DNA of 64,000 nt from Acidobacteriota bacterium (GCA_040755995.1 JBFMAF010000036.1:224001-288000), one strand, 5' to 3'. Shown: positions 12,001 through 54,393, counted from the first letter of the stretch. The notes: generated from the sequence alone by a model not told the origin. Program-made: numbers and translations.

Positions 12001-13558
12001 GGAGTTGATCATCTCCGAATCCGGCGTCTCGCTCATCCTCACGACCAGCTCCACGACCGCCTCGCTGCCCATACTGGGAATCCCGAGCGTTCCAGTCGAT
12101 GCAGAGCAGGATCCCGCGATTGCTGGCTCAGACTCGAACCTGCCCTGTTCGGTTGTGCCCGAGAACTTGGCCTATGTGATCTTCACGTCGGGATCGACGG
12201 GAAGGCCCAAGGGGGTCATGAGCCAACACGGCTCGCTGGCCAACTACACGAGAATCGCCGGGGAAGCCTACGATCTGAGGCCCGGCGACCGCATGCTGCA
12301 GTTCGCCTCCTTGAGCTTCGATGCGAGCGCAGAGGAGATCTTCCCCACCTTGGCACAGGGCGCGACGCTCGTTCTCCGTCCCGATACCATGATCTCTTCA
12401 TTCTCTCACTTCGTCGAGGTGTGCTCGGAGCTGCGCCTCACTCACCTCGACCTGCCCACCGCCTTCTGGCACGAGCTGACCAGGGCGATCGATACCGAAC
12501 GGCTGACGCTCCCGTCGTCACTACGCGTGGTAATCCTCGGCGGCGAGCGCGCCCTTCCCGACCGGCTAACGATGTGGCGGCGCAACGCGCCTGCATCCGT
12601 GCGGCTCTTCAACACGTATGGCCCCACGGAATCCACGATCGTTGCCACCATGCATGAAGTGCCTCTCGATGCGGCTGAGCAAGACGGGCTGCGCGAGATG
12701 CCGATCGGAGGGCCGATACCGAGGTCGCACGTCTACGTGATGGATCCGAACCTGGATCTCGTGCCCGTGGGCATTCCCGGTGAGTTGCACATTGGCGGCG
12801 ACGGCCTGGCCCGCGGCTACCTGAATCACCCGGAGACGACTGCCGAGAGGTTCGTGCCGAACCCGTTCGCGGTCCGGCCTGGCGACCGGCTTTACAAGAC
12901 CGGCGACCTCGTGCGGTGGCGCCCGGACGGCGCAATCGAGTTCCTGGGTCGCATCGACCATCAGGTCAAGGTACGGGGCTTCCGTGTAGAGCTCGGCGAG
13001 GTCGAGGCGGTCCTTGCGCAGCACCCGTCGCTGATCGGGTGCGCGGTCACAGCGCGTGAGGACTCCGCCGGCGATCGCCGCCTCGTCGCCTATGTCGTCG
13101 CGGCTCAGGACCGCGCGCCGGCACCGGGCGAACTGCGCGCTTATCTGCAGGAGCGCATGCCGTCGTACATGGTACCTTCCACGATCATCCTGCTCGATTC
13201 GCTGCCGCTCACGCCGAGCGGCAAGGTCGACCGGCGGGCACTCCCGGCTCCGGATCGAATCCGGCCCGACCTGGAAAGCTCGTTCGCAGCTCCTACCAAC
13301 GAGATCGAGGAGAACCTCGTCGAGATCTGGTGCGATGTGCTCGGTCTGGAACAGGTGGGGATCAACGACAACTTCTTCGAGCTCGGAGGCCACTCCCTGC
13401 TACTCCCGCAGGTTATCCATCGCGTACGCGAGACATTCCAGATCGACGTTCCGTTGAGGAGCCTCTTCGAAGACCCCACGATCGCGAGCCTCGGGCTGGT
13501 CATCGAAGAGCGGATCCTGGATGAGATCGAAGGCGTCACCGAAGACGGTGTGACGTAG
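2..13558 (+). CDS. NRPS1, 5'-truncated: [A partial]-T-C-A(acidic, Lys2-like)-T-C-A(Gly)-T-C-A(Gly)-T-C-A(Lys/Arg)-T plus acidic C-terminal docking tail
   Basis: Four HHxxxD C motifs (HHIITDGWS, HHIITDAWS, HHIASDAWS, HHIITDGWS), five GGHSLL T motifs, and A-domain cores (TSGSTG.PKG, YGPTE, YR/KTGD or YRSGD). Manual codes: DVRHFALLAK, DILQLGMVWK twice, DAEDIGTIVK. No E domain. Confidence 0.97.
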   Translation: MLGDDGRLCGIGEPGEIFVRTPFRTLGYLNTPEENRLRFVANPFGNDPDDLLYRSGDRGRYRPDGSLEILGRFDHQVKIRGVRVELSEIEAALSKHPDLQGTAVIASEDVLGNKRLVAYVACSPQEQPTSGELRSFLRGMLPEYLIPSVFVTMAALPLTSSGKVDRRALPEPAQGPEDGDGSYVAPRTPDEELLAGIWQDVLGLDRVGVHDNFFDRGGHSLLATQVISRARTACQRELPLRILFETPTIAGLAGYIAAQRAESSGPVPQLVPVPRKGSVPLSFAQERLWILNQLDSESAAYNVFRAVRLKGELDLDLLRKSFNDLVSRHESLRTTFQAEDGVPVQVIGPHHSLDIPLHDLRCLIGEAQQDEIMRLADEESERPFDLTRGPLLRVTVLRLDDADHIMFLTFHHIITDGWSMWVFVREMALLYQAHAEGRPSPLQDLSIQYADFALWQRDYLRGETLKSHRSYWETQLAGAPGAIELPVDGTSQEDVGSKGGIRTLHLSAALSKSLRDLSRRHGATLFMTLLAAFKALLHRLTAQDDIVVGSPIAGRIRPEIENLIGFFVNTLVLRTDLSGRPTFVELLRRVREVTLGAYSHADYPFEKLVEDLHPDRDMGRNPFFQVLFNFISTPPHSLTLPALSLGFEELTEPPRRFPITFYALDFEEALSFRLVYQTSLFSSSRIESLLDQYHHLLEQIVESPELPVGALSLVTPAARRLLPDPARPLDEPAFEPVADMFYRWVDQAPASPAVSTGRAVWSYAALGRRATDIARRLAGSGLNRGDVVAIAGARSVGVVACMLGVLRAGGALLLVDKNLPVQRQRLMIREAQARHALFVGEVPLEASEFLSVQRVDEGDGCIRGEGSTVDASALPASCPDDPAYVFFTSGSTGTPKGVLGCQKGLSHFLAWQREMFAVGPQDRSAQLTALSFDVVLRDVLLPLVSGATLCIPPEDMDLGPDRIIPWLDSERITVLHTVPTLARTWLARAPEGVHPRALRWVFFAGEPLPESLVLRWRETFSGGGTIVNLYGPTETTLAKFSYAVPDEPAPDVQPVGWPLPETQGLVLGEGGVLCGIGEPGEIVIRTPFRSLGYLNAPEENQRRFFPNPCSGDPRDLLYRSGDRGRYRPDGSLEILGRLDFQAKIRGVRVELQEVEAALGRHPGVQAACVVAPEDAHGGRFLAAYIVPNGRTKIHRGELRRFLKEKLPEYMIPAVFVELEAMPLTSSGKVNRRALPPPEQLSSEVEEAFVAPCSHEEQVLAAIWGDVLGRERIGIHDNFFDLGGHSLLATQVVSRARSALQKEIPLRALFENPTIAGLAGVIAAGTQQSAAVAQIVPMPRDGNIPPSFAQERMWFLNQFDPGTAAYNTYRAVRLRGTLDVDILTRCVNEIVRRHEALRTVFVSIDGYPYQVVRPELHVSIPVQDIGAPDQENAVLRLAREESERPFDLEHGPLLRFALLRLGAADHVMLLTFHHIITDAWSSWTFVRELTLLYESYLEGMPSPLPELPVQYADFALWQRRWLQGEVLASHISYWKAKLRGAPPLLTLPTTHPRPAVQTFNGAHYTEVLPPSLMTALRDVSHRNGATLFMSLLSAFSVLLSKYAGQDDVLIGSPIANRNRSEIENLIGFFVNTLVFRADVSGDPTFTELLARVRETTMEGYAHQDVPFEKLVEELHPERDLSHPPLFQVMFIMQNVPRTSIALSGLTLDPLEIDNEASKFDLTLSVTESEQGLFASYEYNTDLFDAAAIERMAGHFRVLLESMAGRPESRISELPLMSGPEQERVLVEWNATRREYRREKCVHELFEEHAARSPEATAIVFQDQALTYAELDARANQVANYLMAFGAGPETLVGICIDRSLEMVVGLLGILKSGSAYVPLDPEYPKERLAYMIEDARVGVLLTQERLDSALPAHAATVVRLDSGWGDVARESTDKPAAHVDSESLAYVIYTSGSTGRPKGVQIPHRALTNFLVSMLVEPGLGKEDTLVAVTSLSFDIAALEIYLPLIAGGRIVLMSREVVGDGERLRDVLARSAATVMQATPATWRLLVDADWRAGDGFRALCGGEALPESLSAELQSRCGSVWNMYGPTETTVWSSIERCTDRKPTIGRPVANTTMYILDASLHPVPAGVFGELYIGGDGVARGYLNRPELTAEKFIPDQFRGIEGARLYRTGDSARFLADGTLEYAGRIDHQVKVRGFRIELGEIESVLGRHASVANVVAVVREDVPGDKRLVAYVVPRQDATVASGELREMLRESLPDYMMPAAFVMLDALPLTPNGKIDRRALPAPDQAAQDAGTTYVAPRTPHEEVLAGIWAEVLRREGIGVHDDFFDLGGHSLLATQVVSRVRAAFQKELPLRSLFESPTIAGLAARLTGDESDLAAGIPPLVPMPREGRIPLSFAQERMWFLNQFDPGTSAYNLYRAVRLRGTLDLALLEQCVNEIIDRHEALRTRFIPIDGYPFQVVPPASRLPVPLRDLRDLPEPERDTIVMELLKEESQRPFDLAGGPLVRVTAFRLGAEDHFLLLTFHHIASDAWSIWGFIREMSVLYQAHLEGRPSPLPDLSVQYADFALWQREWLRGEALASQVSYWREKLQGAPPLLTLPTTHPRPPMQTFNGSRHTTVLSPALMAALKDLSRRNGATLFMTLLSGFSALLSKYSGQDDVPVGSPIANRNRSEIENLIGFFVNTLVFRTDVSGDPTFTELLSRVRETTMEGYLYQDVPFEKLVEELQPERDLSHPPLFQVMFIMQNVPQTTVELPGLTLDLLEVGSAASKFDLTLSVTEAEEGLYASYEYNTDLFDAAAIERMAGHFRVLLESIANRPESRISELPLMTLPEQERVLVEWNDTGREYRRERCMHELFEEQAARSPEATAIVFQDQALTYGELDARANQVANYLSARGAGPETLVGICIDRSLEMVVGLLGILKSGSAYVPLDPEYPKERLAYMIEDARVGVLLTQERLDSVLPAHAATAVRLDSGWGDVARESTEKPAAHVDSESLAYVIYTSGSTGRPKGVQIPHRALTNFIESMLVEPGLRREDTLVAVTSLSFDIAALEIYLPLIAGGRVVLASREVATDGERLRDALTRSAGTVMQATPATWRLLVDAGWRAGDGFRALCGGEALPESLAVELQKRCGSVWNMYGPTETTVWSSIERCTDRKATIGRPVANTAMYILDASLHPVPAGVFGELYIGGDGVARGYLNRPELTAEKFMPDQFSGIEGARLYRTGDSARFLADGTIEYGGRIDHQVKVRGFRIELGEIESVLGRHASVANSVVVVREDVPGDKRLAAYVVPRQDAAVVIGELREMLRESLPDYMMPSAFVVMDALPLTPNGKIDRRALPAPDQAAQDAGTTYVAPRTPHEEVLAGIWAEVLRRERIGVHDDFFDLGGHSLLATQVVSRVRAAFQKELPLRSLFENPTIAGLAARLTGDQSNLAASIPPLLPMPREGRIPLSFAQERMWFLNQLDPETTAYNLYSAMRLTGALDLGILGKGLNEILRRHENLRTVFVSVDGHPCQVIAPELELELEFSDIAGLAEPDREKEARRLADIENNRPFDLIRGPLVRMKVLRLGPTEHILLAAMHHIITDGWSARVFIRELIELYRAFSEGLPSPLPELPIQYADFALWQRGWLQGEALDEQMSYWQRKLGGNPPVLELPADRSRSHTQGFQAAHESVTIPPAVVDALKKLSRLHGSSLYMTLLAGFEALLYRYTGQDDFLIGAPIANRNRADTENLIGFFLNTLIIRADLAGDPSFEELLERVRNVSLEAFAHQDLPLEQVLRVFPSDHQLTRTSPFQVMFLLQNIPPLDRAVSQLTITAVDTARGVDLGTAIFDLAMTVQERDGGLDASILYNAGLFDAVSITRMLDRYRSLLEGAAGAPSQRLSRLGLMNEVERQDLLARSIGPCDSDGAPLAHRMFEARVEVTPEQVAVLSEDRQLTYRDLNAEANRLARRLQALGAGPEVRVAICMPRCVEMIVAVLGVLKAGAAYVPIDPAYPVDRKELIISESGVSLILTTSSTTASLPILGIPSVPVDAEQDPAIAGSDSNLPCSVVPENLAYVIFTSGSTGRPKGVMSQHGSLANYTRIAGEAYDLRPGDRMLQFASLSFDASAEEIFPTLAQGATLVLRPDTMISSFSHFVEVCSELRLTHLDLPTAFWHELTRAIDTERLTLPSSLRVVILGGERALPDRLTMWRRNAPASVRLFNTYGPTESTIVATMHEVPLDAAEQDGLREMPIGGPIPRSHVYVMDPNLDLVPVGIPGELHIGGDGLARGYLNHPETTAERFVPNPFAVRPGDRLYKTGDLVRWRPDGAIEFLGRIDHQVKVRGFRVELGEVEAVLAQHPSLIGCAVTAREDSAGDRRLVAYVVAAQDRAPAPGELRAYLQERMPSYMVPSTIILLDSLPLTPSGKVDRRALPAPDRIRPDLESSFAAPTNEIEENLVEIWCDVLGLEQVGINDNFFELGGHSLLLPQVIHRVRETFQIDVPLRSLFEDPTIASLGLVIEERILDEIEGVTEDGVT
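4500..10395 (+). repeat. Tandem duplication of the Gly module: about 4500-7230 and about 7665-10395, offset 3165 bp
   Basis: Near-identical DNA at a constant offset (4841/8006, 5821/8986, 7201/10366). The shadow ORFs 6001-6468 and 9166-9633 are also near-identical. Confidence 0.93.
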
Positions 13559-13570
13559 ATTGGACCAACC

Positions 13571-16500
13571 ATGAAGTCGAACATTGGAGCGAAGCCCATG
13601 GGATCCGGAGAACCCCGGCCGGACTTTGCAGATCGCATGAACGCCGCAAAAGAACGATTGTCGATGACGAGCGAACCCCGGGGACACCGGTCCGCAGCGC
13701 CCGCGCGTGGGCAGCACGGATCTGAGGCAAGTGTCCGCCCGACCACCCAGGCTGACGGGCGGGTCGAGTGCCTGATGGAGCTGTTCGAGGACCAGGTGGA
13801 TCGATCCCCCGGCCAGGAGGCCCTCATAGACGGGCACCGCCGCCTGACCTACCGAGAGCTGGAGATGCGGTCGAATCAGCTTGCGCACCGGCTGACGGCA
13901 GCCGGAGTCGGGCCCGAGGTCCTTGTCGGGATCTGCATGCAGCGTTCCGCGGAAATGGTGGTCGGTGTGCTGGGAATCCTGAAGGCCGGTGGTGCCTACG
14001 TGCCGCTCGACCCAGCCTACCCGAAGGACCGGCTTGCGATCGTGCTGGAAGACGCGCAGGTGCCGGTGCTGCTGACCAACGAGACCGAGCTCGGATGCCT
14101 GCCGCAGCTCGCGAATGTTGAGACGATCTGTCTGGACCGCGAGAAGGGGATCATCTCACAGGAGAGCACGGAGAGGCCGCGCAGGCGAGCTACCGCCCGC
14201 AACCTGGCGTACATCATCTACACATCGGGATCTACGGGACGGCCCAAGGGCGTGGCAATCGAACACTCGAGCGCGGTGACCTTCGTGATGTGGGCAGGGG
14301 AGGTCTTCTCGCGCGAGGAGCTGACGGCCGTCCTGGCTTCCACGTCGCTCTGCTTCGACCTCTCGGTTTTCGAGATATTCGTGCCGCTGAGCTGCGGCGG
14401 AACAGTCGTTGTGGCCCGAAACGCACTCCAGTTGCCGTCGCTTCCCGCTTCGCAAGAGGTGACGCTCATCAATACCGTGCCGTCGGCGATGGCCGAGCTC
14501 GTGAGAATGGACGCCATTCCAGAACGTGTGCGCACGGTGAACCTCGCGGGTGAACCGCTGAAGAACACGCTCGTCCAACGTGTCTACGCACGAAAGACAG
14601 TCGAACGCGTCTACAATTTGTACGGTCCCTCAGAGGACACCACATACTCAACCTTCGCGCTCGTGCCGAGGGGCGGGACGCGGGCTCCCACAATCGGCAG
14701 GCCGATCGCGAATTCGCAGACCTACATCCTCGATGCTCAGATGCACCCTGTCCCTGCCGGGGAGGTTGGAGAGCTGTATATCGGCGGAGCGGGATTGGCG
14801 CGGGGCTACCTCAACCGGCCTGACGTGACCGCAGAGCGCTTCGTTCCAGACCCGTTCGGCGGCGAACCCGGTGGGCGGCTCTACACGACCGGCGACCTCG
14901 CGCGACTCCTCCCAGACGGCGAAATCGACTTCCTGGGACGCGCTGACCACCAGGTCAAGCTGCGGGGATTCCGCATCGAGCTCGGCGAGATCGAAGTCCT
15001 GCTCGAACAACAACGCGGAGTAAGAGAGGCAGTCGTGATAGTCCGTGAGGACATCCCCGAGGACAAGCGTCTTGTCGCGTACGTGGTCCCAGATGCCGGC
15101 GCGCGGATCGAACCGCGGGAGATCCGGAATTCGCTGAAGCAGAAGCTCCCGGAATACATGCTCCCGCCGGCGATCGTGGTCATGAACTCCTTGCCGCTGA
15201 CGCCGAACGGAAAGGTGAATCGGTTGGCATTGCCGGCCCCGGACTGGAGTGCCTGCGGGGACCACCGGGAACACGTGGGGCCTCGCACGCCGGTCGAGGA
15301 GGTGCTGGCGGGAGTCTTCGCCGAGGTGCTCGGCATCCAGAGAGTCAGCGTCCGGGACAACTTCTTCGAGATCGGCGGTCATTCACTGCTCGCCACACGC
15401 GTCATCTCTCGAATCCGGTCCGCATTCGGCGCGGAACTGCCTCAAGGACGGATCTTCGATGCCCCCACCGTTGAGGCGCTGGCGGAAGCCGTCGAGACGG
15501 CGCTTCGCGCAGGCACCCACGACGAGCTGCCGCCTCTCAAGCGCGCAGCGAGAGAGGGGCGGGACCGATTCCCGCTCTCCTTCGCGCAGCAGGGCTTGTG
15601 GTTCCTGGATCAACTGGCGCCGGATTCCGCTGCATACAACATCCCCTACAAAGTCGACATGACAGGCCCCTTGGATGTGAGCGCTCTCAGGAGCGCGCTG
15701 AACGAAATCGTGAAGCGACACGAAGCGCTGCGGACGACTTTTCACCTGGCTGAGGACAATCCCTTCCAGAGGATTCACCCCCCCAGGCCCCTCACAATCC
15801 CGTTCATCGACCTCTCATGTCTCTCGGCGACAGAGAGCGAGGATGGGGTTCGCCGGATGGAGGCCGACGAGGCGCGGAGGCTCTTCGACCTGAGAACCGG
15901 ACCTCTCATGCGAGTCGTCCTCCTGCGTCTCGGCCGCGAGAAACACAAGCTCCTGTTGACCATGCACCACATCGTCGGCGATGACTGGTCATCCGGCGTG
16001 CTCTTCAGCGAGCTCGCGACACTCTACAAAGCGTTCTCCTCGGGCATGCCATCGCCGCTTCCCGACCTGCCGATTCAGCCCGCCGACTTCGCGCTCTGGC
16101 AGCGCGAGTCGTACTCCGCCGATAGATTGAAGCAGGAGCTCTCCTACTGGAGGCAGAGGCTGGCGGGCGCACAGGGGGTGCTCGAGCTGGCCACGGACCG
16201 TCCCAGACCTCCTGTGCGGACCTTCTCCGGTGCAGCCGTGTCACTCGCGCTTCCACCGGCACTGGGCGACGCCATCAAGTCGCTCTGCCAGCAGGAAGGA
16301 GTGACCCTTTTCATGCTGCTTATGGCGGCGTTCAAGGCATTCCTCCACCGCCACACAGGCCAATCCGACATCATCGTCGGGACCCCGATCGCAGCCAGAA
16401 CCCGGGCGGAGATCGAAGGGCTCATCAGCTTCTTCGTGAACACGCTCGCCCTGCGCACCGATCTTTCGGGCGACCCGAGCTTCCGCGCGCTGCTTCGCCG

Positions 16501-18742
16501 TGTTCGAGAGACCGCCCTCAGCGCGTACAGCCACCAGGATGCCCCCATCGAACGGCTGGTCAACGAGCTTCAACCGGTCAGGGATCCCAGCCGCAGCCCT
16601 CTCGTGCAGGTCATGTTTGCTCTGCAGAACCCGCCAGCCGACAGGTTCGACATCGGACCTCTGACGCTCCGCGTCGCCGAGCTTCACAACGGCTCGTCCA
16701 AGCTCGACCTGACCCTCTTCGTGAAGGACGCGGCCGAGGGTCTGGCTGCGACTGTCGAATACAACACCGACCTGTTCGACCGCGATACCGTGGTGCGGAT
16801 GCTCGAGAATTTCCGGACGATGCTGGACGGCGTCGTAGCGAATCCCGACCAGCGCCTCTCGGAGCTGCCGGTTCTGAGTGCCGCGGAGCGGCACCGGCTT
16901 CTCGTCGAATGGAACGACACGCGTTCCGACTACCCGAAGGGCGATTGCCTGCACAACCTCGTCGAGCTGCAGGCGAAACGCATTGCGGGCGCCGCGGCCG
17001 TCGTCTGCGACCACGAGCGCCTGACCTATCGCGAGCTCAACGCCCGAGCCAATCAGCTTGCTCATCACCTCCGCGGCCTCGGCGTCGGCCCGGAGGTTCG
17101 CGTCGGGCTCTGCACGGAACGTTCGGCGAACATGGTGATCGGCCTGCTCGCGATCCTCAAGGCGGGCGGAGCCTACGTGCCTTTGGACCCGGCGTATCCG
17201 AAGGAGCGTGTAGCCTTCATGTTGCGGGACAGCCAGGCGGCAGTATTGATCACCACAGAGCGGCTGCTCGATTCCCTGCCCCGTCATGATGCCCGTATCC
17301 TCTGTCTCGACCGGGACGCCGAATCGATCCTCTGGCGCAGCCGGGAGGATGTGAGGAGCGGTGTGTGCCCGCAGAACCTGGCCTATCTGATCTACACCTC
17401 CGGCTCGACCGGGGTGCCCAAGGCGGTGGCGATCGAGCACAGGAGCGCCGTGACGTTCGTGCACTGGGTGCGCGACAACTTCTCAGATCAAGAGCTCGCC
17501 GGCGTGCTGGCCTCCACTTCCATCTGCTTCGATCTTTCGGTGTTCGAGATCTTCGGGACGCTCGGTCTCGGCGGCAAGGTCATTCTCGCCGACAACGCCC
17601 TGCATCTCCCGGCGCTCGCGGCTGCGCGCGAGGTGACGCTGATCAACACCGTACCTTCGGCGATGGCCGAGCTGCTTCGGATTGACTCGATACCGGCCTC
17701 CGTGGGCACCGTGAATCTCGCCGGGGAGCCCCTGACGAGCTCCCTTGTCCAGCAGCTCTACTCGAAACCGGCGATCCGCCGCGTTCTGAACCTCTATGGG
17801 CCATCCGAGGATACCACGTACTCAACCTCAGCGGTGCTGCGCCCTGACGACGGACGCGCGCCGTCGATCGGGCGGCCCATCGCCGGCACGCAAGTCTACC
17901 TGCTCGACGACACCGGACGCCCTGTACCTCAAGGGGTGCCGGGCGAGCTGTGCATTGGAGGCGAGGGATTGGCAAGGTGCTACCTCGGCCGGCCCGACCT
18001 TACGGCGGCGAGATTCGTCCCCAACCCCTTCAGCGGCGCGGCCGGCGCGCGCATGTACAGGACCGGCGATCTCGCCCGCTACCAGTCCGATGGAAACATC
18101 GAATTCCTCGGCCGCCTCGATCACCAGGTTAAGATCCGTGGTTTCCGCATCGAGCCGGGGGAGATCGAGGCCGCGATCGCACAACATCGGGGCGTGCGCG
18201 AGACGGTGGTCGTGGCTCAGGCAGGCGGACCCGCGGAAGGGCGGCTCATCGCCTACGTGGTCCCTGCGCAAAATCCGCCTCCAACCACGCGCGAGATCCG
18301 TCAGTTCCTCGGGCAGAAGCTGCCGGAGCCGCTGCTGCCGTCCGTCTTCGTGTTTCTGCGAAAACTGCCGCGAACTCCGAACGGCAAGATCGACCGGTCG
18401 GCTCTTCCGGCGCCTGACCCATCGGGCTGCTCGGATGCGGCCCCGGCGCCGCCGCGCACAGAGACCGAGGAGCGGTTGTCGGAGATCTACCAGCAGGTTC
18501 TCTCGGTCGATCGCGTCGGCATTCATGACAACTTCTTCGAGATAGGCGGTCATTCGCTGCTGGCCACCCAGGTGCTCTCCCGAGTGCGATCCGTCTTTCG
18601 CGTCGACCTGCCGCTGCGCAAGGTGTTCTCGGCGCCGACCGTCGCGGGGCTCTCCGAGCAGATCGAAGCGGCTCAGTGGGCGAGCCAGCTGCTGCGATCA
18701 TCGCTCGCGGCGGTGGGAGATCGCGAGGAGGGGGTGCTGTGA
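13571..18742 (+). CDS. NRPS2: A(Ala)-T-C-A(Ala)-T, with an initiation module lacking a C domain and a C-terminal docking peptide
   Basis: About 65 aa of leader run straight into an A domain. Both A codes are DLFNNALTYK (Ala). One C domain (HHIVGDDWS), two GGHSLL motifs, ends in DREEGVL. Exact start uncertain. Confidence 0.96.
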   Translation: MKSNIGAKPMGSGEPRPDFADRMNAAKERLSMTSEPRGHRSAAPARGQHGSEASVRPTTQADGRVECLMELFEDQVDRSPGQEALIDGHRRLTYRELEMRSNQLAHRLTAAGVGPEVLVGICMQRSAEMVVGVLGILKAGGAYVPLDPAYPKDRLAIVLEDAQVPVLLTNETELGCLPQLANVETICLDREKGIISQESTERPRRRATARNLAYIIYTSGSTGRPKGVAIEHSSAVTFVMWAGEVFSREELTAVLASTSLCFDLSVFEIFVPLSCGGTVVVARNALQLPSLPASQEVTLINTVPSAMAELVRMDAIPERVRTVNLAGEPLKNTLVQRVYARKTVERVYNLYGPSEDTTYSTFALVPRGGTRAPTIGRPIANSQTYILDAQMHPVPAGEVGELYIGGAGLARGYLNRPDVTAERFVPDPFGGEPGGRLYTTGDLARLLPDGEIDFLGRADHQVKLRGFRIELGEIEVLLEQQRGVREAVVIVREDIPEDKRLVAYVVPDAGARIEPREIRNSLKQKLPEYMLPPAIVVMNSLPLTPNGKVNRLALPAPDWSACGDHREHVGPRTPVEEVLAGVFAEVLGIQRVSVRDNFFEIGGHSLLATRVISRIRSAFGAELPQGRIFDAPTVEALAEAVETALRAGTHDELPPLKRAAREGRDRFPLSFAQQGLWFLDQLAPDSAAYNIPYKVDMTGPLDVSALRSALNEIVKRHEALRTTFHLAEDNPFQRIHPPRPLTIPFIDLSCLSATESEDGVRRMEADEARRLFDLRTGPLMRVVLLRLGREKHKLLLTMHHIVGDDWSSGVLFSELATLYKAFSSGMPSPLPDLPIQPADFALWQRESYSADRLKQELSYWRQRLAGAQGVLELATDRPRPPVRTFSGAAVSLALPPALGDAIKSLCQQEGVTLFMLLMAAFKAFLHRHTGQSDIIVGTPIAARTRAEIEGLISFFVNTLALRTDLSGDPSFRALLRRVRETALSAYSHQDAPIERLVNELQPVRDPSRSPLVQVMFALQNPPADRFDIGPLTLRVAELHNGSSKLDLTLFVKDAAEGLAATVEYNTDLFDRDTVVRMLENFRTMLDGVVANPDQRLSELPVLSAAERHRLLVEWNDTRSDYPKGDCLHNLVELQAKRIAGAAAVVCDHERLTYRELNARANQLAHHLRGLGVGPEVRVGLCTERSANMVIGLLAILKAGGAYVPLDPAYPKERVAFMLRDSQAAVLITTERLLDSLPRHDARILCLDRDAESILWRSREDVRSGVCPQNLAYLIYTSGSTGVPKAVAIEHRSAVTFVHWVRDNFSDQELAGVLASTSICFDLSVFEIFGTLGLGGKVILADNALHLPALAAAREVTLINTVPSAMAELLRIDSIPASVGTVNLAGEPLTSSLVQQLYSKPAIRRVLNLYGPSEDTTYSTSAVLRPDDGRAPSIGRPIAGTQVYLLDDTGRPVPQGVPGELCIGGEGLARCYLGRPDLTAARFVPNPFSGAAGARMYRTGDLARYQSDGNIEFLGRLDHQVKIRGFRIEPGEIEAAIAQHRGVRETVVVAQAGGPAEGRLIAYVVPAQNPPPTTREIRQFLGQKLPEPLLPSVFVFLRKLPRTPNGKIDRSALPAPDPSGCSDAAPAPPRTETEERLSEIYQQVLSVDRVGIHDNFFEIGGHSLLATQVLSRVRSVFRVDLPLRKVFSAPTVAGLSEQIEAAQWASQLLRSSLAAVGDREEGVL

Positions 18743-21700: not shown

Positions 21701-24700
21701 CCTCGGGAGACGTGCGCGCGTGGCTGCGGGCGAAGCTGCCCGAGTACATGGTGCCGGCGGCTTTCGTCATGCTGGATTCGCTCCCCCTCACGCCCAACGG
21801 CAAGGTTGACCGCGACGCCCTTCCCGCTCCGGAGGGAGACGCGGCTGATGCCGGTCGTGCCTTCGCCGGACCGCGGACGCCGGTGGAAGAGGTCGTGGCG
21901 GGGATCTGGGCGGATGTGTTGAAGCTCGACCGAATCGGAATTCACGACAGCTTCTTCGACCTGGGCGGCCATTCGCTGCTGGCGACCCAGGTGATCTCCC
22001 GGGTGAGGCAGGCATTGCGAGTGGATCTTCCGCTGCGCAGGCTCTTCGACACGCCCACGGTCTCGGGACTGGCCGATGCGCTAGAACGGGCCTTGCGTTC
22101 GGGCGATGAATCGGAGGCCCCGCCGATCGTGCCCGCGTCGAGGGAGGCGGATCTGCCACTCTCTTTCGCGCAACAGCGTCTGTGGTTCCTGGATCAGTGG
22201 GAGTCGGAGAGCCCCTTCTACAGTATCCCTCTGGCGTTGCGTCTCACGGGAGCGCTCGATATCGACGTGATGGTTCGCTGCCTGAACGAGATCGTCGGAC
22301 GTCATGAGTCCTTGCGGACGACCTTCAGAGTAGTCGGCGATGTGCCGCGCCAGGTGATCGCTCCACCCACTCCCATTCCCCTGCCGCTCGTGGACCTCCG
22401 GCATCTGCCGCCGCCCCGGCGAGAGGCCGAGATGCTGCGCCTCGCCTCCGCGGAGTCCCACAAGGCGTTCGACCTTGGTCGAGGCCCGCTCATCCGATCT
22501 CGCCTCCTTCGTCTGCGAGACGAAGAGCATGTGCTGCTACTCACGATTCATCACATCGTAGCGGATGGGTGGTCTCTGGGAGTGCTGTTTCGCGAGCTGG
22601 ATGCGCTCTACGATGCCTTCCGGCGTGGCGATCCATCTCCACTGCCGCCGCTGGCAATCCAGTACGCCGACTTCGCCAACTGGCAGCGGGAGTGGTTGAG
22701 CGGCGATGTTCTCGAACGGCACATCGCCTACTGGAGAGAGAAGCTGGGCGAAGACGTTCCATCCCTGGCCCTCCCGACTGACAGGCCCAGACCGCCGGTT
22801 CAGTCATTCCGCGGCGCCAATTGCAGCTTCGCGCTCCAGGAGGACCTCTGCCGCGCCCTGCGGACCTTGTGTCAACGCGAGGGTGTGACGCTCTTCATGG
22901 CGCTGCTGGGCGCCTTCCAGACTCTGCTGCACCGATACTCGGGGCAGGATGTCATCGTCGTCGGATCGCCGATATCCAACCGCACACGAGTCGAGACCGA
23001 GCCCTTGATCGGGTTTTTCGCAAACACACTGGCCCTCCGGACGGACATGGATCGGGATCCGAGTTTCCGAGAGCTGCTGGGAAGGGTCCGAGAGATCGCT
23101 CTCGGGGCCTATGCCCACCAGGATCTGCCCTTCGAGAAGCTGGTGGAGGAGCTCCATCCTGATCGTGACATGAGCCACACGCCGCTGTTCCAGGTCATGT
23201 TCGTCTTGCAGAACGCCACGCAAGTTCCACGGGAGCTCTCGGGGCTGGCCCTGGAGCTCCTCGACGTCGACACCGGCACGGCCAAGTTCGATCTGACACT
23301 GTCGATGGCGGAGAACGAGCGGGTGATCGATGCCAACTTCGAGTACAACACGGACCTTTTCGAACACGCCACGATCGAGCGGATGGCGGACAACTTCCGA
23401 GTGCTGCTTAGCGGGATCGTGGCCGACCCGTCTGCGGCGATCTCCGAGCTCCCGCTTCTGACCGAGGCGGAGCGGCATCGGATTCTGTCCGCATGGAACG
23501 ACAGCCGGAGCGAGTATCCCGGCGAGCAGTGCATTCATGAATTCTTCGAGGCTCAGGCCGAACGCACGCCGGAAGCCTCGGCGGTGGTCTTCCAGGGTCG
23601 AGAGCTGACCTATCGCGAATTGAATGCGCGGGCGAACCAACTGGCGCATCACTTGCGAAGAAACGGTGTCGGGCCCGACGTGCTCGTGGGGATCTGCATC
23701 GACCGGTCCCTCGAAATGGCCATCGGACTGCTCGGCGTTCTGAAGGCAGGTGGCGCGTACGTCCCGCTCGATCCGGCCTACCCCAAAGAGCGACTGGCCT
23801 TTATGCTGGCCGACGCCCGTGTCTCAGTGCTTCTGACCCGGGAGAGCCTCCGCGGGGAGCTGCCTGCGAGTGGAGCGAGAATCATCTGCCTCGACAACGG
23901 ATGGGAGGCCGTCGCGGCGGAATCGCCCGCAAACCTTGAGTCGGGTGCGACGGCCGACAACCTGTCCTACGTGATCTACACGTCGGGATCCACCGGGCAG
24001 CCCAAGGGCGTGGTGCTGACACACCGGACGCTGACGAACCTCGTTACATGGCAGCTGCAGGACTTCTTCGCCGCGCCGAATGCCCGGACTCTGCAGTTCG
24101 CACCACCCAGCTTCGATGTCTCATGCCAGGAGATCTTCTCCACCTGGAGCGCCGGGGGCACCCTGGTGCTCATACCGGAAGAGACCAGGCGCGACGGATG
24201 GGCTCTCCTTCGTTTTCTCAACAGCGAGAGGATCGAGCGGTTGTTCGTGCCGTTTGTGGCTCTTCAACAAGTCGCCGAGATGGTGGGCGCGGGCGGCCCG
24301 CTGCCCGCGCATCTGGGTGAAGTCATCACGGCGGGCGAACAGCTTCTCACGACTACTGCGATCACAAAGCTCTTCGGCAGATTGAGCGATTGCGCCCTCG
24401 CGAACCAGTACGGTCCGTCCGAAGCGCACGTGGTGACCGCTTACGCTCTCTCCGGCGCGCCCTCCGGCTGGCCGAAGCTGCCGCCCATCGGCCGCCCCAT
24501 CGCCAACACTGGAATCTACATCCTGGATCGGAGGCTGCAACCTGTGCCGATCGGCGTCGCGGGCGAGTTGTACATCGGTGGAGACGGTCTGGCCCGAGGC
24601 TACCTGAACAGGCCCGAGGCCACGGCGGAACGGTTCATCCCGCATCCTTTCAGCGCGGAGCCTGGAGCGCGCCTGTATAGAACCGGGGATCTCGCGCGAC

Positions 24701-27111
24701 ACCTGCCGGACGGAGCGATCGAGTTCCTCGGGCGAATCGACCAGCAGGTGAAGGTGCGAGGGTTCCGGATCGAGCTTGGCGAGATCGAAATCGTTCTGGA
24801 ACGGCATGCCGGCGTGCGCCAGGCGGTCGTGGTGCTGCGCGAAGATGCCGATAGCCCGAAGCGCCTCGTGGGCTACATCGTCCCCGAGGATGAGACGCAT
24901 CTCGAAGTCGATGAGCTTCGAGGCTACCTGAAGGAGAAGCTCCCCGAATACATGGTCCCGGCGGCGCTGATCGTGCTGAAGTCGGTGCCGCTGACACCGA
25001 GCGGCAAGGTCGACAGGCGGCGGCTGCCGGCGCCGGACTGGATGGACGTGGAGCGCGGACGTGAGTATGTGGCGCCACGCACCCCCGTCGAGGAAGTGCT
25101 CGCCGGCACGTGGGCGAACGTCCTGGGCGCCGGGAAGGTCAGTGTCAACGACAACTTCTTCGACCTCGGAGGGCATTCACTGCTGGCGACTCAGATCATA
25201 TCCCGCGTTCGAACGACGTTCGGTGTCGAGATTCCGCTGCGCAGGATCTTCGAGAGTCCGACCGTGACAGGACTGGCGGAATCGATCGAAACCGAGATGC
25301 GATCCGGGAAGAGCCTCAGGACCCCGCCTCTCCGTCGAGCCCCCAGAGACGACGGGGCGACGCTGCCGCTCTCGTTCGCCCAACAGAGGCTCTGGTTCCT
25401 GAACCAGCTGGAGCCTGACTCGGCGAGCTACAACATTCCGACCCCGATGCGCCTGCGAGGCCCCTTGAACGTCAAGGCACTTAGCCGGGCGCTCGACGAA
25501 ATCGTTCGGCGGCACGAGTCGCTGAGGACGCACTTCGAAATCCGGGCCGGAGAGCCCGTGCAGATCGTCGACCCCCCTTCGGCCGTGCCGCTGCCCCTGC
25601 TGGATCTCAGCGATGTCGAAAAAGACGATCGGCACGCCGAGGCCGCGCGCGCGGCTCGAGACCACGCGCAACTTCCCTTCAAGCTCGCCAGCGGCCCTCT
25701 CTTCCGCGCAGCACTGCTCCGGCTTGCCGAAGATGACCACGTCCTCCTCCTGACAATGCACCACATCGTGTCAGACGCGTGGTCTCTCGGAGTGCTCACC
25801 CAGGAGATTGCGACGCTCTATGATGCGTACTCGGACGACCTTCCATCGCCTCTTCCGGATCTGCCTGTTCAATACGGGGACTACGCCGTGTGGCTTCGGG
25901 AATGGCTGAAGGGGGAGACGCTCGACGAGGAGATGTCTTACTGGAAGACGCAGCTCGGGGGCTCACTGCCGGTTCTCGATCTGCCCACCGATCACCCGCG
26001 CCCGAGGCTCCAGACCTTCCGCGGGCGAGTCCAGTCGCGCGTCCTCGCAGATGGCTTCGCCCAGCGGCTGGATGCCCTCTGCCGGCGCGAGGCAGTCACG
26101 CCGTTCATGTTCCTGCTGGCCGCATTCAAGACGCTCTTGCTCCGATACACGGGCACAGAAGACATCATCATCGGCTCGCCCATAGCCAACCGCAGCCGTG
26201 AAGAGATCGAAGGCTTGATCGGCTTCTTCGTCAACACCCTGGTTCTGCGGACTGATCTCTCAGGCGACCCGACCTTCGAAGAGCTTCTACGCCGAGTGCG
26301 CGATGCGACGCTGGGAGCCTACGCTCATCAGGATGTTCCGTTCGAAAAGCTCGTGGAGACACTGCAGCCGGAGAGAGATCCCGGCCGCAACCCGATCTTC
26401 CAGGTCATGTTCGCCCTGCAGAACGCTCCCGAGGGCAGGACGGCCATGAAGGGGATTTCGATCGAGCCCTTCGAGTGTGACTCCACGGTCGCTCACTTCG
26501 ATCTCAGCCTTGTCATCTCCCGAGTGGAGGGCGACTACGTCGCCTGGCTGGAATACAACACGGACCTGTTCGACGACGAGACGATGGCGCGAGTGCTGAG
26601 CCACTACGAGTGCCTGGTGAACAGTGTGACCCGTGATCCCGGCCAGCGCCTGTTCGACGTGGCACTGTGGCCCGGGCCGAAAGAGGAGGCGATAGCGGAG
26701 CTGGTGGCGACGATCGAGGAGTCGATCAGGAGGCAGCCTGGCGTGAAAGAGTGCATCGTGTTGCATAGAGAGTCCCCGCGGGTGGCCCCACGTTTCGCCG
26801 CCTTCGTCGCGTGCGAGGGAACGTGCCGTTCCACGCAGACGGGCTTCGACGGCCTGTCGATCACCATGATGGACCGGCTGCCTCGATCGGAAGACGGCCG
26901 AGTCGATCGACCCCGGCTGCTACGAATGGCGGATTCAGGTAAGACTGTCCCGCCATCGATGTCACGTGGCGGGAGCGAGGCCGACGGCTGGCAGCAGCAA
27001 GCGCCGGGTGAGGACGTGCGAAATCGGAAGAAGGAGCTGGCGGCGAGGCGCGCCAGGCTGTCGGCGGCGAAGGGCGCGATGTTGGAGAAGCGATTGCGAG
27101 GTGAGGTGTGA
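18739..27111 (+). CDS. NRPS3: TubC-type N-terminal docking domain-C-A(Val/Ile)-T-C-A(Pro/Pip)-T-C-degenerate A subdomain-docking helix
   Basis: GTG start overlaps the NRPS2 stop (GTGA) after GAGGAG. N-terminus VLDLVSRLRDQDVRLWVDGEQLRFSAPKNALSPELRAEL. Codes DAFFMGGTFK and DVQFIAQVVK. Three C motifs and two T motifs. Confidence 0.96.
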   Translation: MTVLDLVSRLRDQDVRLWVDGEQLRFSAPKNALSPELRAELVEHKSEVLQLLREAEDRERESSSPLTRTSRDRRIPLSHAQQRLWFLEQLAPGTSTYNMPCSVWIQGELNQRTLEQALNEIVRRHEALRTVFPESEGAPHQQVLDFVPASLAVRDLGELPEAEREREAKRLASEEADRPFDLVRGPLLRFFLIRLRSTDHILVMLMHHIVSDGWSIGVILRELATIYEAILAGGPSPLPELAVQYADYACWQRRWLQDDVLRSQLAYWRRQLEGPLPVLTLPIDHPRPAVQTHRGAVRSMAIPRELSEALKALCSSEGVTLNMLLLAAFKVLLHRYTAQEDLVVGSPVAGRDRREIEELVGFFVKMLVLRTDLSGNPPFKVLLQRVKDVTLGALAHQDVPFEMLVDALQPERQQSYSPLFQVAFAYQASLFSSSQARGGLIFTPAAIERRTAKFDLMLVMSESNTSLEAEIEYNTDLFDEATIDRMLGHFETVLGAIASDPDCRISDVPILKAEERHRLVVEWNQTGTPYPRGACIQELFEAQVERTPESVAVRYEDAHLTYRELNRRANQVAHRLRKLGVRTDSPVGLYMDRSPEMIVAILGILKAGGAYVPLDPTYPPERLGFMIRDAAAPVLIVQKRLLGRLPPNDACVLCIDSQWESIGSESTTNPGCAASPDSLAYVIYTSGSTGVPKGVAVPHRAVIRLVCDTDFVQLGPSDRVAQVSNSSFDAATFEIWGALLNGGQLIGITKDLAISPQDFARSLIDERISAIFLTVALFNLVAREAPHAFGAVRHFMFGGEAADPAWVREVLRKQPPERLINGYGPTENTTFTACHVVTDLPDTATSVPIGRPIANTTIYILDRRLNPVPVGAPGELYTGGDGLARCYLSRPELTAERFIPDPFCLDPGRRLYRTGDLARHRPDGVIEFLGRVDHQVKIRGFRIELGEIEACLAEHPDVQDCVVLAREDDPGEKRLVAYLVPREGHRRPSGDVRAWLRAKLPEYMVPAAFVMLDSLPLTPNGKVDRDALPAPEGDAADAGRAFAGPRTPVEEVVAGIWADVLKLDRIGIHDSFFDLGGHSLLATQVISRVRQALRVDLPLRRLFDTPTVSGLADALERALRSGDESEAPPIVPASREADLPLSFAQQRLWFLDQWESESPFYSIPLALRLTGALDIDVMVRCLNEIVGRHESLRTTFRVVGDVPRQVIAPPTPIPLPLVDLRHLPPPRREAEMLRLASAESHKAFDLGRGPLIRSRLLRLRDEEHVLLLTIHHIVADGWSLGVLFRELDALYDAFRRGDPSPLPPLAIQYADFANWQREWLSGDVLERHIAYWREKLGEDVPSLALPTDRPRPPVQSFRGANCSFALQEDLCRALRTLCQREGVTLFMALLGAFQTLLHRYSGQDVIVVGSPISNRTRVETEPLIGFFANTLALRTDMDRDPSFRELLGRVREIALGAYAHQDLPFEKLVEELHPDRDMSHTPLFQVMFVLQNATQVPRELSGLALELLDVDTGTAKFDLTLSMAENERVIDANFEYNTDLFEHATIERMADNFRVLLSGIVADPSAAISELPLLTEAERHRILSAWNDSRSEYPGEQCIHEFFEAQAERTPEASAVVFQGRELTYRELNARANQLAHHLRRNGVGPDVLVGICIDRSLEMAIGLLGVLKAGGAYVPLDPAYPKERLAFMLADARVSVLLTRESLRGELPASGARIICLDNGWEAVAAESPANLESGATADNLSYVIYTSGSTGQPKGVVLTHRTLTNLVTWQLQDFFAAPNARTLQFAPPSFDVSCQEIFSTWSAGGTLVLIPEETRRDGWALLRFLNSERIERLFVPFVALQQVAEMVGAGGPLPAHLGEVITAGEQLLTTTAITKLFGRLSDCALANQYGPSEAHVVTAYALSGAPSGWPKLPPIGRPIANTGIYILDRRLQPVPIGVAGELYIGGDGLARGYLNRPEATAERFIPHPFSAEPGARLYRTGDLARHLPDGAIEFLGRIDQQVKVRGFRIELGEIEIVLERHAGVRQAVVVLREDADSPKRLVGYIVPEDETHLEVDELRGYLKEKLPEYMVPAALIVLKSVPLTPSGKVDRRRLPAPDWMDVERGREYVAPRTPVEEVLAGTWANVLGAGKVSVNDNFFDLGGHSLLATQIISRVRTTFGVEIPLRRIFESPTVTGLAESIETEMRSGKSLRTPPLRRAPRDDGATLPLSFAQQRLWFLNQLEPDSASYNIPTPMRLRGPLNVKALSRALDEIVRRHESLRTHFEIRAGEPVQIVDPPSAVPLPLLDLSDVEKDDRHAEAARAARDHAQLPFKLASGPLFRAALLRLAEDDHVLLLTMHHIVSDAWSLGVLTQEIATLYDAYSDDLPSPLPDLPVQYGDYAVWLREWLKGETLDEEMSYWKTQLGGSLPVLDLPTDHPRPRLQTFRGRVQSRVLADGFAQRLDALCRREAVTPFMFLLAAFKTLLLRYTGTEDIIIGSPIANRSREEIEGLIGFFVNTLVLRTDLSGDPTFEELLRRVRDATLGAYAHQDVPFEKLVETLQPERDPGRNPIFQVMFALQNAPEGRTAMKGISIEPFECDSTVAHFDLSLVISRVEGDYVAWLEYNTDLFDDETMARVLSHYECLVNSVTRDPGQRLFDVALWPGPKEEAIAELVATIEESIRRQPGVKECIVLHRESPRVAPRFAAFVACEGTCRSTQTGFDGLSITMMDRLPRSEDGRVDRPRLLRMADSGKTVPPSMSRGGSEADGWQQQAPGEDVRNRKKELAARRARLSAAKGAMLEKRLRGEV

Positions 27112-28157
27112 GCAAGCTGGATCCGGCAACCCGGCAGGCAGGCCTCCTGGCCCGGCGCGCCAGGTTGTCGCCCGACAAGCACCACCTCTTGCAGAGACGT
27201 CTCCGTGGTGAGCTGCCGCCGGCTCCGAGTGCGTCGCCGGCACCGCGGTCCTGTCTCGTCGACATCCAACCGAAGGGCGCGAAGCCGCCCTTCTTCTGCG
27301 TCCATCCGCTCGGCGGCGACGTGCTCTGCTTCTTTCCGTTGGCCCGCTGCATGGGCTCGGACCAGCCGTTCTATGGCTTTCAGTCCCATGGACTTCAGCA
27401 GGACCTTGATCCGCTGAAACGCATAGAAGAGATGGCTGCGCTCTATGTGGGCGAGATGAGGAAAGTTCAGCCAGATGGTCCCCATCTCATTGGCGGCTGG
27501 TCGTTTGGAGGGCTCGTTGCCTTCGAGATGGCGCAGCAGCTCCACGCGCAAGGCAGTCCAGCGTCCCTGCTCGCGATTCTCGACACGACGCCGGGAATGG
27601 AGCCTCAGCAGGCTGTCGAGATTAGGAGCGCGGATATCTACCGCGACAACCGGAGCTGGCTGCTGTCGATTGCACAATATGTCGAGGGGCTCTGGGGGCG
27701 CAGACTGGAGCTCTCGGCTAGCGCCCTCGAACGAATGGCTCCGGATGAGCAGTTGAGCTACTTCGTGGAACGTGTGAAAGGCGCCCGCCTTATGTCTTCC
27801 AACGTGACGCTTGATCAGCTTCGCCGCCTTCTCAACGTCTTCAAGTCCAACAGTCGCGCGTGGTGCGCGTATGTTCCTCGCCTCTACCCCGGCCGGATCA
27901 CCGTCATAAGGTCCGCACTCGGCGTCGTCCCGTTCGGCGACTCAGCCCAATCGGCGGATGTCGCTCGTGGCGCGTTTTCGGACGATCCCGCGCTGGGATG
28001 GGGGCAGTTCTCGTCGGTGCCCGTCGAGGTGCGGACTGTCCCGGGCAGCCACATAACCATGCTGGCCGAACCAAACGTCAACGTCCTGGCAACTCAGCTG
28101 CAGGCCTGTCTCGAAACGAGGCAGTCCGTCGCCTGCTGCAATTCGGAGGTATCGTGA
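27108..28157 (+). CDS. Stand-alone type I-like thioesterase with an N-terminal docking helix
   Basis: PFFCVHPLGG, GWSFGG nucleophile motif, VPGSHITML His motif. GTGA coupling to NRPS3. Confidence 0.93.
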   Translation: MSKLDPATRQAGLLARRARLSPDKHHLLQRRLRGELPPAPSASPAPRSCLVDIQPKGAKPPFFCVHPLGGDVLCFFPLARCMGSDQPFYGFQSHGLQQDLDPLKRIEEMAALYVGEMRKVQPDGPHLIGGWSFGGLVAFEMAQQLHAQGSPASLLAILDTTPGMEPQQAVEIRSADIYRDNRSWLLSIAQYVEGLWGRRLELSASALERMAPDEQLSYFVERVKGARLMSSNVTLDQLRRLLNVFKSNSRAWCAYVPRLYPGRITVIRSALGVVPFGDSAQSADVARGAFSDDPALGWGQFSSVPVEVRTVPGSHITMLAEPNVNVLATQLQACLETRQSVACCNSEVS

Positions 28158-33473: not shown

Positions 33474-34245
33474 GGCTCGCCAGCAGTCGATGGAAGATCA
33501 GGCGCGTGAGTGGAGTCCGATTGGCGTGCAGGTAGAAATGATCCCCCGGGAACATCCGCACTGAGAACGAAGCCGCCGTGTGCCGGTCCCATGCCTCCAG
33601 AGATTCGCGATCCACCTCGGAGTCCTCCAGTCCGCCGAAGGCCCAGATGGGGCATTCCAGCGTCTGCTCCGCTGCATAGGAGTAAGTCTCGTTCACGGAA
33701 AAATCCGCCCGGATGACGGGCAGGAACAACGACATCACTTCCTGGTTTCCAAGGATTTCCTGCGGAATGCCGTTCAGACGCCGGAGGAAATCCACAAGCT
33801 CCGCATCGGGCAGTGCGTGCACTGGGGGCCTGCGGGGCGGGAGCTGTGGAGCTCGACGCCCGGAGACGAACAGCTGAATCGGCTGAGGATCGCTCCGACG
33901 GTGGAGCAGCCGAGCGAGCTCGAAGGCGACCAGCGCGCCAAGACTGTGACCGAAGAAGGCGAAAGGGAGGCCCAGACATGGAAGGATCGACTCGCGAAGG
34001 GGCTCGATCACCTCGCACATGGACGCGACGGCCGGCTCCCTCCACCGGTTCTCCCTACCCGGCAGTTGTATCGCGACGACCTCTATCTCCTGCGGCGCCC
34101 CTTCAGCCCACTGTCGAAAGACCGAGGCGGCCCCTCCCGCGTACGGGAAGCAGAACAGGCGCAACCTGGCCTGGAGGTTGCGCCTGGGGAAAACCAGCCA
34201 CGTTTGTTCGGACTCGGACTCGGGCGTCTTGCTCATCGGAGCCAT
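33463..34245 (-). CDS. Type II (editing) thioesterase
   Basis: RLFCFPYAGG, QLPGRE, FFGHSLG, FPGDHFY. Confidence 0.95.
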   Translation of the reverse strand: MAPMSKTPESESEQTWLVFPRRNLQARLRLFCFPYAGGAASVFRQWAEGAPQEIEVVAIQLPGRENRWREPAVASMCEVIEPLRESILPCLGLPFAFFGHSLGALVAFELARLLHRRSDPQPIQLFVSGRRAPQLPPRRPPVHALPDAELVDFLRRLNGIPQEILGNQEVMSLFLPVIRADFSVNETYSYAAEQTLECPIWAFGGLEDSEVDRESLEAWDRHTAASFSVRMFPGDHFYLHANRTPLTRLIFHRLLASLRR

Positions 34246-54392: not shown

Positions 54393-54393
54393 G

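Follow-up and report, generated by a model that had tools for sequence, protein, structure and literature searches.

Every ingredient of the peptide assembly considered in this work has a precedent, i.e., double acylation of lysine (ScoA), a terminal condensation (C) domain acting in trans (AmbB), convergence through thioesterases (TEs) (PMC7794379), and a start by fatty acyl-AMP ligase (FAAL) combined with an acylase. The isonitrile lipopeptide non-ribosomal peptide synthetases (NRPSs) ScoA, MmaA and Rv0101 share the Lys-type code met here, and in them both amines of a carrier-bound Lys are acylated by condensation, one C domain adding the same small acyl group twice before an R domain releases the product (bioRxiv 10.1101/121228). 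In AmbB/AmbE (AMB) a protein made of adenylation (A), thiolation (T) and C domains uses its terminal C to condense onto an amino acid on another protein's T (PMC4357302), and FR900359, salinamide, necroxime and rimosamide are each joined into one product from two lines, both ending in a TE, by TE-catalysed transesterification (PMC7794379). Here we analyse an NRPS and polyketide synthase (PKS) cluster in a stretch of 64,000 nucleotides from an Acidobacteriota bacterium (the window, i.e., G000:C36:224001-288000, G000 being our label for the source genome), in which two long chains, or arms, are in our judgement quite probably built separately, joined on one T-bound Lys and then released by a TE.

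Results

The layout, established by open reading frame (ORF) and motif analysis together with Pfam, is given in window positions, negative ones lying before the window start; genes are on the plus strand unless stated otherwise. NRPS1 (gene E), the last gene of the lipid arm (arm 1), has its true start before the window, at -2503, and runs to 13558. It carries an N-terminal docking domain and five C-A-T modules, with the codes DARHFALLVK and DVRHFALLAK (which we take to be Ser-like), Gly, Gly and DAEDIGTIVK; the code names Ala, Gly, Val/Ile and Pro are presumed in the same way throughout. Its fifth module consists of C5 (10352-11653), which belongs to a dedicated clade with an altered acceptor face, A5 (11750-13240), with the Lys-type code DAEDIGTIVK, and T5 (13292-13555), the proposed hub carrier, which has Pro at Ser+4 and an acidic docking tail of one helix. 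Arm 2 opens with NRPS2 (gene F, 13571-18742), an A(Ala)-T-C(HHIVGDD)-A(Ala)-T protein without N-terminal C that ends in a short acidic motif of the REEGVL type. NRPS3 (gene G, about 18739-27111) follows as TubC_N-C-A(DAFFMGGTFK)-T-C-A(DVQFIAQVVK)-T-C, its codes being presumably of Val/Ile and Pro type and its N-terminal docking domain a clear TubC_N (PF18563, E 4e-20). The terminal C (25375-26660; PF00668, E 3.5e-120) has an intact HHxxxD motif (HHIVSDAWS at 25759) and no T after it. Behind it lie a degenerate A-subdomain (26710-26930, approximate ends), whose A core is deleted and A10 Lys lost, and a basic helix (27020-27108) homologous to N-terminal docking domains. The type I TE (27108-28157; GWSFGG at 27495) is a separate gene with a docking helix at its own N-terminus, coupled to NRPS3 through a GTGA overlap. 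A frameshift joining the two was rejected, the overlap being ordinary coupling and each gene having its own copy of the helix.

An earlier note, made from the window sequence alone, had described NRPS1 as ending in A(DAEDIGTIVK)-T with an acidic tail, NRPS2 as a C-less start docking to NRPS3, and NRPS3 as ending in an intact C without T, next to a separate TE; all of this holds, though the degenerate A-subdomain and the basic helix had been overlooked. The same layout recurs in G002 (same family, other genus), in genomes of the class Thermoanaerobaculia and in metagenome loci, which takes it beyond chance. With its C-less NRPS2, the T-less end of NRPS3 and a FAAL start of its own in arm 1, the cluster departs from the canonical linear (type A) NRPS.

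Arm 1 begins well upstream of the window, where four genes precede NRPS1. The starter gene (G000:C36:199481-209353, window -24519 to -14647) encodes FAAL, acyl carrier protein (ACP), C, A(ASGSMGGICK), T, ketosynthase (KS, Cys to Ser), acyltransferase (AT), ketoreductase (KR) and ACP domains, in this order. It is followed by a DUF5916 protein (G000:C36:209361-211820), a KS-AT-ACP gene (G000:C36:211981-215106) and a C-A(Ala)-T-KS-AT-ACP gene (G000:C36:215103-221504). The line thus opens with FAAL-ACP-C. The earlier note had named the linear order NRPS2, NRPS3, upstream genes as an arrangement that would undo its two-chain reading, and this order is impossible because arm 1 has its own fatty-acid starter. 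Two initiation points (a FAAL-ACP and an A-T start), a mark of non-linear (type C) or convergent NRPSs, are seen in the window cluster and in six others in which the starter gene is visible. The idea of arm 1 as a separately built chain is strengthened; its fatty-acyl/polyketide, lipopeptide nature and the partner acylase had been missed.

In all seven copies of the starter gene (G000:C36, L101, L191/L192, L196, L199, L206/L207 and L213/L214) the A domain is without Asp235, with the code ASGS[LM]GG[IV]CK, and the KS has its catalytic Cys replaced by Ser, AT, KR and ACP being retained. In the clusters G458a (C1:1.68-1.74 Mb) and G061b (C71:152-174 kb) the fetched region holds no FAAL starter gene; each of these two genomes has one in its second family cluster, and the starter may be shared in trans. 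A DUF5916/CBM9-like protein is found in or beside the cluster in 9/9 cases with a visible upstream part (G000 and eight homologous clusters), and the tail of gene A (in the lettering in which NRPS1 is gene E) resembles a T-KS linker split around the DUF5916 gene. A homologue search with the starter A region was uninformative, as multi-module NRPSs were ranked by their summed score.

On the sequences compared, the Lys module is the invariant fixed point of the family. Arm 1 ends in a code of the type D[ATN]E[DNT][IV]GT in 11/11 clusters with a visible junction, and this code occurs nowhere else among 119 A domains. In all, 16 clusters pass from a lipid arm through a dedicated module to a C-less A-T start, the code being Lys-type in the 15/15 that can be read. 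The T of the Lys module has Pro at Ser+4 in 10/11 cases, as against 0/144 other T domains; in FscG the Ser+4 residue (L2518) belongs to the acceptor interface (PMC8097023). Out of sample, a search with a T profile found 22 places, eight of them training rows and 14 new. Six of the 14 have Pro at Ser+4, five of these precede an A-start gene, and their codes are Lys-type in 4/4 readable cases, one being cut off; the remaining eight, without Pro, all precede a C domain. The C domains before Lys fall on one branch (10/10, SH-aLRT 99) that spans two classes, in a quick tree of 129 domains, and their clade-specific residues, around 323-341, adjoin the FscG acceptor-carrier contact R2906-A2907-V2908. 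The members of the family are kin, and such counts express conservation and not probabilities.

The window code matches that of ScoA (DTEDVGTVVK) at 7/10 positions and the code of G398 does so at 9/10. Since Lys and Arg codes are similar, A5 might load Arg, or some other residue whose side chain cannot be acylated, in which case there would be no branch and arm 2 would be joined otherwise or not at all. We hold this to be very improbable, even though the top single-domain match of A5 in the PDB is ApnA A1 (which we take to be Arg/Tyr-activating), given the likeness of both codes to one tested for Lys: ScoA takes L-Lys and not Orn, and acylates both its amines on the carrier (bioRxiv 10.1101/121228). 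As regards the earlier label 'Lys/Arg-like', the code lies closer to this tested Lys code than could be shown for Arg. One locus, L126:2-10837, is a single polypeptide in which A(Lys-type)-T is fused straight to A(Ala)-T with no C between them, the acidic tail being retained internally and the end being C-helix-TE.

At the other end of the system, the A-subdomain remnant behind the terminal C scores 23.0 bits in the window, against at most 2.8 in 200 shuffles, and 40.5 bits in G002; BLAST against one intact A-subdomain gave no alignment for this remnant, which the profile did detect. Although no T follows it, the terminal C keeps a canonical acceptor face, with Arg at the column of FscG R2906 in 25/25 sequences. 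This bears on whether the terminal C could instead hand the tetrapeptide to a soluble amine (polyamine, or lipopeptide released beforehand), the TE freeing the lipid arm independently, so that two products, or a branched product made off the enzyme, would result. Terminal C domains using free amines are an established mode of release, reportedly operating in vibriobactin. The terminal C of glidonin also releases onto a soluble amine (PMC10587159). The T-less end would suit this, as would the methionine-salvage genes, a possible polyamine supply, beside several homologous clusters. Still, a docking helix conserved on the C would be pointless for a soluble acceptor, the face that binds a carrier is kept, and amine-supplying genes are neither conserved nor found in the window cluster, which makes this release unlikely.

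The first C of arm 2 reads MHHIVGDDWS in the window (15965), and the motif varies across nine homologues, with frequent departures from HHxxxDG (DD, DGE, DE, DA) and long branches. Ureido chemistry, as in an anabaenopeptin-type A-T-C-A-T start, is unsupported, since this motif differs from EHHxxHDG, the motif of ureido-forming first C domains.

The basic helix ending NRPS3 is identical at 24/28 residues between G000 and G002 and is repeated at the N-terminus of the TE. Built on 10 ordinary N-terminal docking domains from the family clusters, a profile scored at least 8 bits in 8/14 terminal-C tails and 18/26 TE N-termini (the TE row of L126 being mis-sliced), as compared to 1/200 shuffles, 0/10 Lys-T tails and 0/11 other acidic tails, which suggests that the C-terminal end of a C domain here bears a docking helix of N-terminal type. 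To judge by sequence, each of the two genes preceding NRPS1 has a helical tail that would pair with the N-terminal helix of the gene after it, and the acidic tail of NRPS1 would thus be the only unpaired C-terminal docking element. Both the NRPS3 helix and the TE helix should then dock on this tail behind the Lys-T. Complex prediction of T5 and its tail with the NRPS3 helix points weakly the same way (0.32, best control 0.00; contact agreement at least 82%; pLDDT of the partner 66), by a mark which 116/157 solved and 2/215 mismatched pairs reach, 18 of the 157 solved pairs and both mismatches doing so at 0.60 or under. A PDB search with the C-terminal helix of NRPS3 gave 0 matches at E 10, and profiles found no stand-alone T or A-T, nor another carrier-ended NRPS partner, elsewhere in G000 except for two small unrelated loci on C13 and C24.

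There is only one type I TE per cluster, free or fused behind the terminal C. This single TE and the docking helix which it shares with the terminal C suggest that both chains end up covalently linked in one product. Among 26 family TEs, 11 are fused as T-C-helix-TE and 15 are free, 14 of the latter following a gene that ends in C plus helix and one (L116) a KS-AT-T with an acidic tail. The locus of this last one, L116:6968-13467, is a reduced operon of KS-(degenerate AT)-T-acidic tail, helix-TE and acylase, with no NRPS in 7 kb upstream.

These features also bear on a linear route, in which the terminal C would serve NRPS2 in trans in place of its absent first C (T5 as donor, the Ala-loaded T1 as acceptor), the chain running on through NRPS2 and NRPS3 until the TE releases it from the last T of NRPS3, perhaps with lactam closure on the side chain of Lys. 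A C domain displaced in this manner has a parallel in split modules of the McyE/McyA type. Colinear gene order speaks for this route, an ordinary terminal C and an invariant Lys (as the site of lactamisation) would both fit it, and 11 homologues have the TE and the last T of arm 2 in one polypeptide. On the other hand, the helix lies past the A-subdomain remnant, on the acceptor (C-terminal) side of the C domain, whilst the donor side is tethered to the last T of NRPS3; NRPS3, itself ending in that basic helix, would offer no acidic partner to a free TE with a basic helix; L116 shows the TE helix after an acidic tail; and the Pro mark of T5 would go unexplained. We consider the linear route improbable: the position of the helix and the need of the free TE for an acidic partner argue for convergent assembly.

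The layout is that of a conserved family, apparently undescribed, whose members belong to two or more classes of the Acidobacteriota. An RpoB tree of 11 genomes places G000 and G002 among the Acidobacteriota, outside the Thermoanaerobaculia (67-69% identity), and the orthologous cluster of G002 is spread over two contig ends. The TE defines a subfamily sharing the N-terminal helix. Searched by TE alignment, 10/401 genomes of the class of G061 matched at 1e-90, the weakest being probably ordinary TEs, and 4/401 of the phylum of G000 at 1e-80, with the helix covered only in G000 and G002. About 22/80 metagenome loci are family members; seven short loci, left out of the 26 analysed TEs, also show TE plus acylase (L109, L111, L115, L118, L119, L120 and L123). 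The window TE alone, run against genome contigs, gave 80 loci, mostly ordinary terminal TEs with one clear family member (L023), and viral contigs gave two loci with ordinary C domains. Spacer length varies in the family between a single ketide and over six Gly/Ser/ketide units, and arm 2 comprises three to six residues. The shortest complete cluster among those seen is at G458:C1, about 4.13-4.17 Mb.

Some members have A-less C-T modules inside arm 2 (G398:C31, G061:C143, L105, L107, L110, L112, L126). Sister clusters, at G808:C230:34456-66163 and G809:C6:800637-830157 (L262-L268) and at L028, have several A-start arms, terminal C domains with the shared helix, tandem C-helix-C junctions and an upstream module with an acidic tail and the code DIWEITADDK, presumably of diamino-acid type. 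Lys-like modules whose T is Pro-marked occur in G809:C16, together with an A-T-C-TE gene; the many frameshifts in G809 call for caution.

Neighbouring genes

Directly after the TE comes an N-terminal nucleophile (Ntn) hydrolase of the penicillin amidase family (28166-30541, start codon approximate; PF01804, E 3e-236), an acylase that holds this position in 25/26 family loci. It has an N-terminal hydrophobic anchor and an intact GSNSW start of the beta chain; its closest PDB entry is the D-succinylase 7EA4 (E 4e-101), and its PvdQ score is 59 bits against a cut-off of 950. By analogy with the hydrolases of PvdQ, CcsQ and corramycin type, shown or proposed to do likewise, the anchored acylase probably cleaves off the fatty acid once the product has been exported by the major facilitator superfamily (MFS) protein encoded at 31042-32373. 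Our best guess for the product is a peptide that is secreted, with a lipid-tethered form as its precursor. The window cluster shares the combination of FAAL start and Ntn acylase with pyoverdine and cyanochelin pathways. A siderophore role is nonetheless unsupported, with no chelating residues, hydroxylases or TonB receptor among the window cluster genes and codes; a TonB receptor lies near one homologue only (L188).

Further along are a gene resembling pyridoxal phosphate (PLP)-dependent Ser/Thr/hydroxy-Asp dehydratases (32373-33473), which has no copy in the G002 cluster region and given this is probably outside the core cluster, and, on the minus strand, a type II (editing) thioesterase (33463-34245). 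In several homologous clusters methionine-salvage genes (ARD, class II aldolase, HAD) lie 3' of the acylase, as does a P450 and MFS pair (loci L202:14493-16492, L099:9994-11279, L198:7918-11512, L189:3325-11885, L205:1993-4666 and L211:3063-4493). These clusters also use the unusual Ala-like codes DMFDNGLTFK, DVASNGLTYK and DIMNNGVTYK, and a residue derived from S-adenosylmethionine is possible there.

Directly before the cluster are a sigma-factor-like ORF, recognised by sequence inspection (L001:17662-19218, window -26338 to -24782), and a zinc-finger/TPR anti-sigma-like gene, with a divergent CHAT-domain gene. Downstream, on the minus strand, the window holds an atypical Hsp70-like protein and two paralogous HEAT-repeat-like membrane proteins (36284-38002 and 40907-44655). 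At 46127-52099 follows a 1990-aa RHS/YD-repeat protein with a short Cys-containing C-terminal tip, then a stretch of lower GC content and a gene like REP-associated tyrosine transposases (53121-54509).

Discussion

As to substrates, docking pairs, order of reactions, amine assignment, mode of release and the role of the acylase, we infer the following from the domain order, conservation and signatures observed directly. The fatty acid loaded by FAAL-ACP would be extended by an unusual first residue and polyketide units, then by the Ala/Ser/Gly spacer, up to the Lys module, whilst NRPS2 and NRPS3, from their C-less start, would build H-Ala-Ala-(Val/Ile)-Pro on the last T of NRPS3. Lys on T5 would be the hub: the in-line C5 would place the lipid arm on one of its amines, and the terminal C of NRPS3, docked by its C-terminal helix on the acidic tail of T5 and holding T5 at its acceptor side, would transfer the tetrapeptide to the other. 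The TE would dock on the same tail and release the product, either by hydrolysis, giving a branched acid, or through attack of the free N-terminus of arm 2 on the Lys thioester, giving a lariat ring. MFS export would follow, and the anchored acylase would then strip the fatty acid.

The earlier proposal, that two chains are joined by the terminal C on Lys-loaded T5 and freed by the TE, is in its core much strengthened by the FAAL starter upstream, the invariant Lys module and the docking helix on both the terminal C and the TE. Release by the free TE is well suited by a helix fitting the NRPS1 tail, and ring closure instead of hydrolysis had not been envisaged; these two outcomes seem to us about equally probable. 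The assignment of the tetrapeptide to the epsilon-amine of Lys, however, finds no specific support. In the C-domain phylogeny it is the in-line, pre-Lys C that forms a dedicated clade, the terminal C being ordinary. Given this specialisation of the in-line C, the lipid arm may equally well sit on the epsilon-amine and the peptide on the alpha-amine, and we see the chances of the two assignments as about even.

Several observations weigh against this convergent scheme. Taken alone, the invariant Lys is not decisive, because a linear route acting in trans could arrive at the same lariat if the TE closed a lactam on Lys. The match of A5 to ApnA A1 has been mentioned; in addition, the Lys-T of G061b lacks Pro at Ser+4, and the Pro-marked T of L250 has another code and precedes an MFS gene, with no A-start gene after it. 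The counts are not independent, because the family members are related. The two helices of the window itself score only 7.5 and 8.4 bits on the docking profile, and the docking prediction may echo a likeness to solved helical docking pairs. Lastly, the terminal C domains split into two groups of 23 and 2 in the quick tree (window and G002 standing apart), are of the ordinary L-L type and have almost no specific residues; not being one clade, and with so few residues of their own, they bear no mark of side-chain-amine chemistry.

It is tempting to extend the convergent scheme to a general branching system in Acidobacteriota, based on a hub carrier, i.e., a Pro-marked T loaded with a diamino acid and visited by three catalysts (its own C, a terminal C with a relocated N-type helix, and a TE or another C bearing this helix). 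The products would be lipid-spacer-Lys-peptide conjugates, branched or lariat, whose arms vary independently, and the same principle appears to recur in the sister clusters, which have several arms and tandem C-helix-C junctions. We hold this generalisation tentatively, at a little less than an even chance. If it is true, the pair of C-helix and T-tail could be a portable tool for engineering branched non-ribosomal peptides. The Pro at Ser+4 of T, the docking helix behind the terminal C and the TE subfamily are recognition marks for such clusters, and, the family being widespread in uncultured Acidobacteriota, the colinear rules of genome mining would mispredict a whole class of peptides, lipid-linker-branched or lariat.

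Among known systems, pacidamycin and napsamycin are said to have both amines of a carrier-bound diamino acid acylated, by small dissociated domains and without a lipid or PKS arm. Anabaenopeptins reportedly have the topology of our lariat option, a Lys side-chain lactam with an exocyclic tail, made by a colinear pathway with a ureido link. The joining of two long chains on one carrier-bound Lys by two different C domains, as the sequences here suggest, we did not find described: full-text searches of open literature, mostly through titles and the starts of abstracts (subscription journals, bioRxiv supplements and MIBiG lying outside their scope), gave no description of this cluster or family, the accessible parts of the reviews PMC8949500, PMC10510592 and PMC8857579 show no system of this layout, and the window A codes are absent from the supplement of PMC12283262. 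A match to a characterised cluster is thus excluded within the reach of these paper searches and the PDB.

The lipid start and its removal have closer counterparts. Pyoverdine (PvdL/PvdQ) and cyanochelin C (CcsQ) are FAAL-primed, with an amide-linked fatty acid and a hydrolase shown or proposed to remove it, as proposed here, but their lines are linear, unlike the window cluster (bioRxiv 10.64898/2026.07.24.740629). The pre-drug proposal for corramycin likewise combines FAAL priming with removal of the fatty acid; corramycin itself was rejected as the product, its starter being FAAL-ACP-C-HAD-T and ours FAAL-ACP-C-A-T-KS (PMC10099666).

With regard to the joining itself, AmbB/AmbE resemble our proposal in the trans action of a terminal C and differ in having a single Ala as donor, an alpha-amine as acceptor and a linear tripeptide as product, and the accessible part of the paper describes no second acylation or relocated helix (PMC4357302). 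The C-A-T-R layout of the ScoA type is not that of the window cluster, a multi-gene NRPS/PKS system with a TE and, among the cluster genes scanned, neither a reductase nor a Fe/alpha-ketoglutarate oxidase. Where ScoA-type enzymes use one C and one small acyl group, we propose two different C domains, two different multi-module chains and a docking TE. Compared to the FR900359 type, there is one TE here, and the join would be an amide made by a C domain on a T-bound diamino acid. Known convergent systems rely on two thioesterases or on single small donors; if our interpretation is correct, the cluster represents a new way to make branched peptides.

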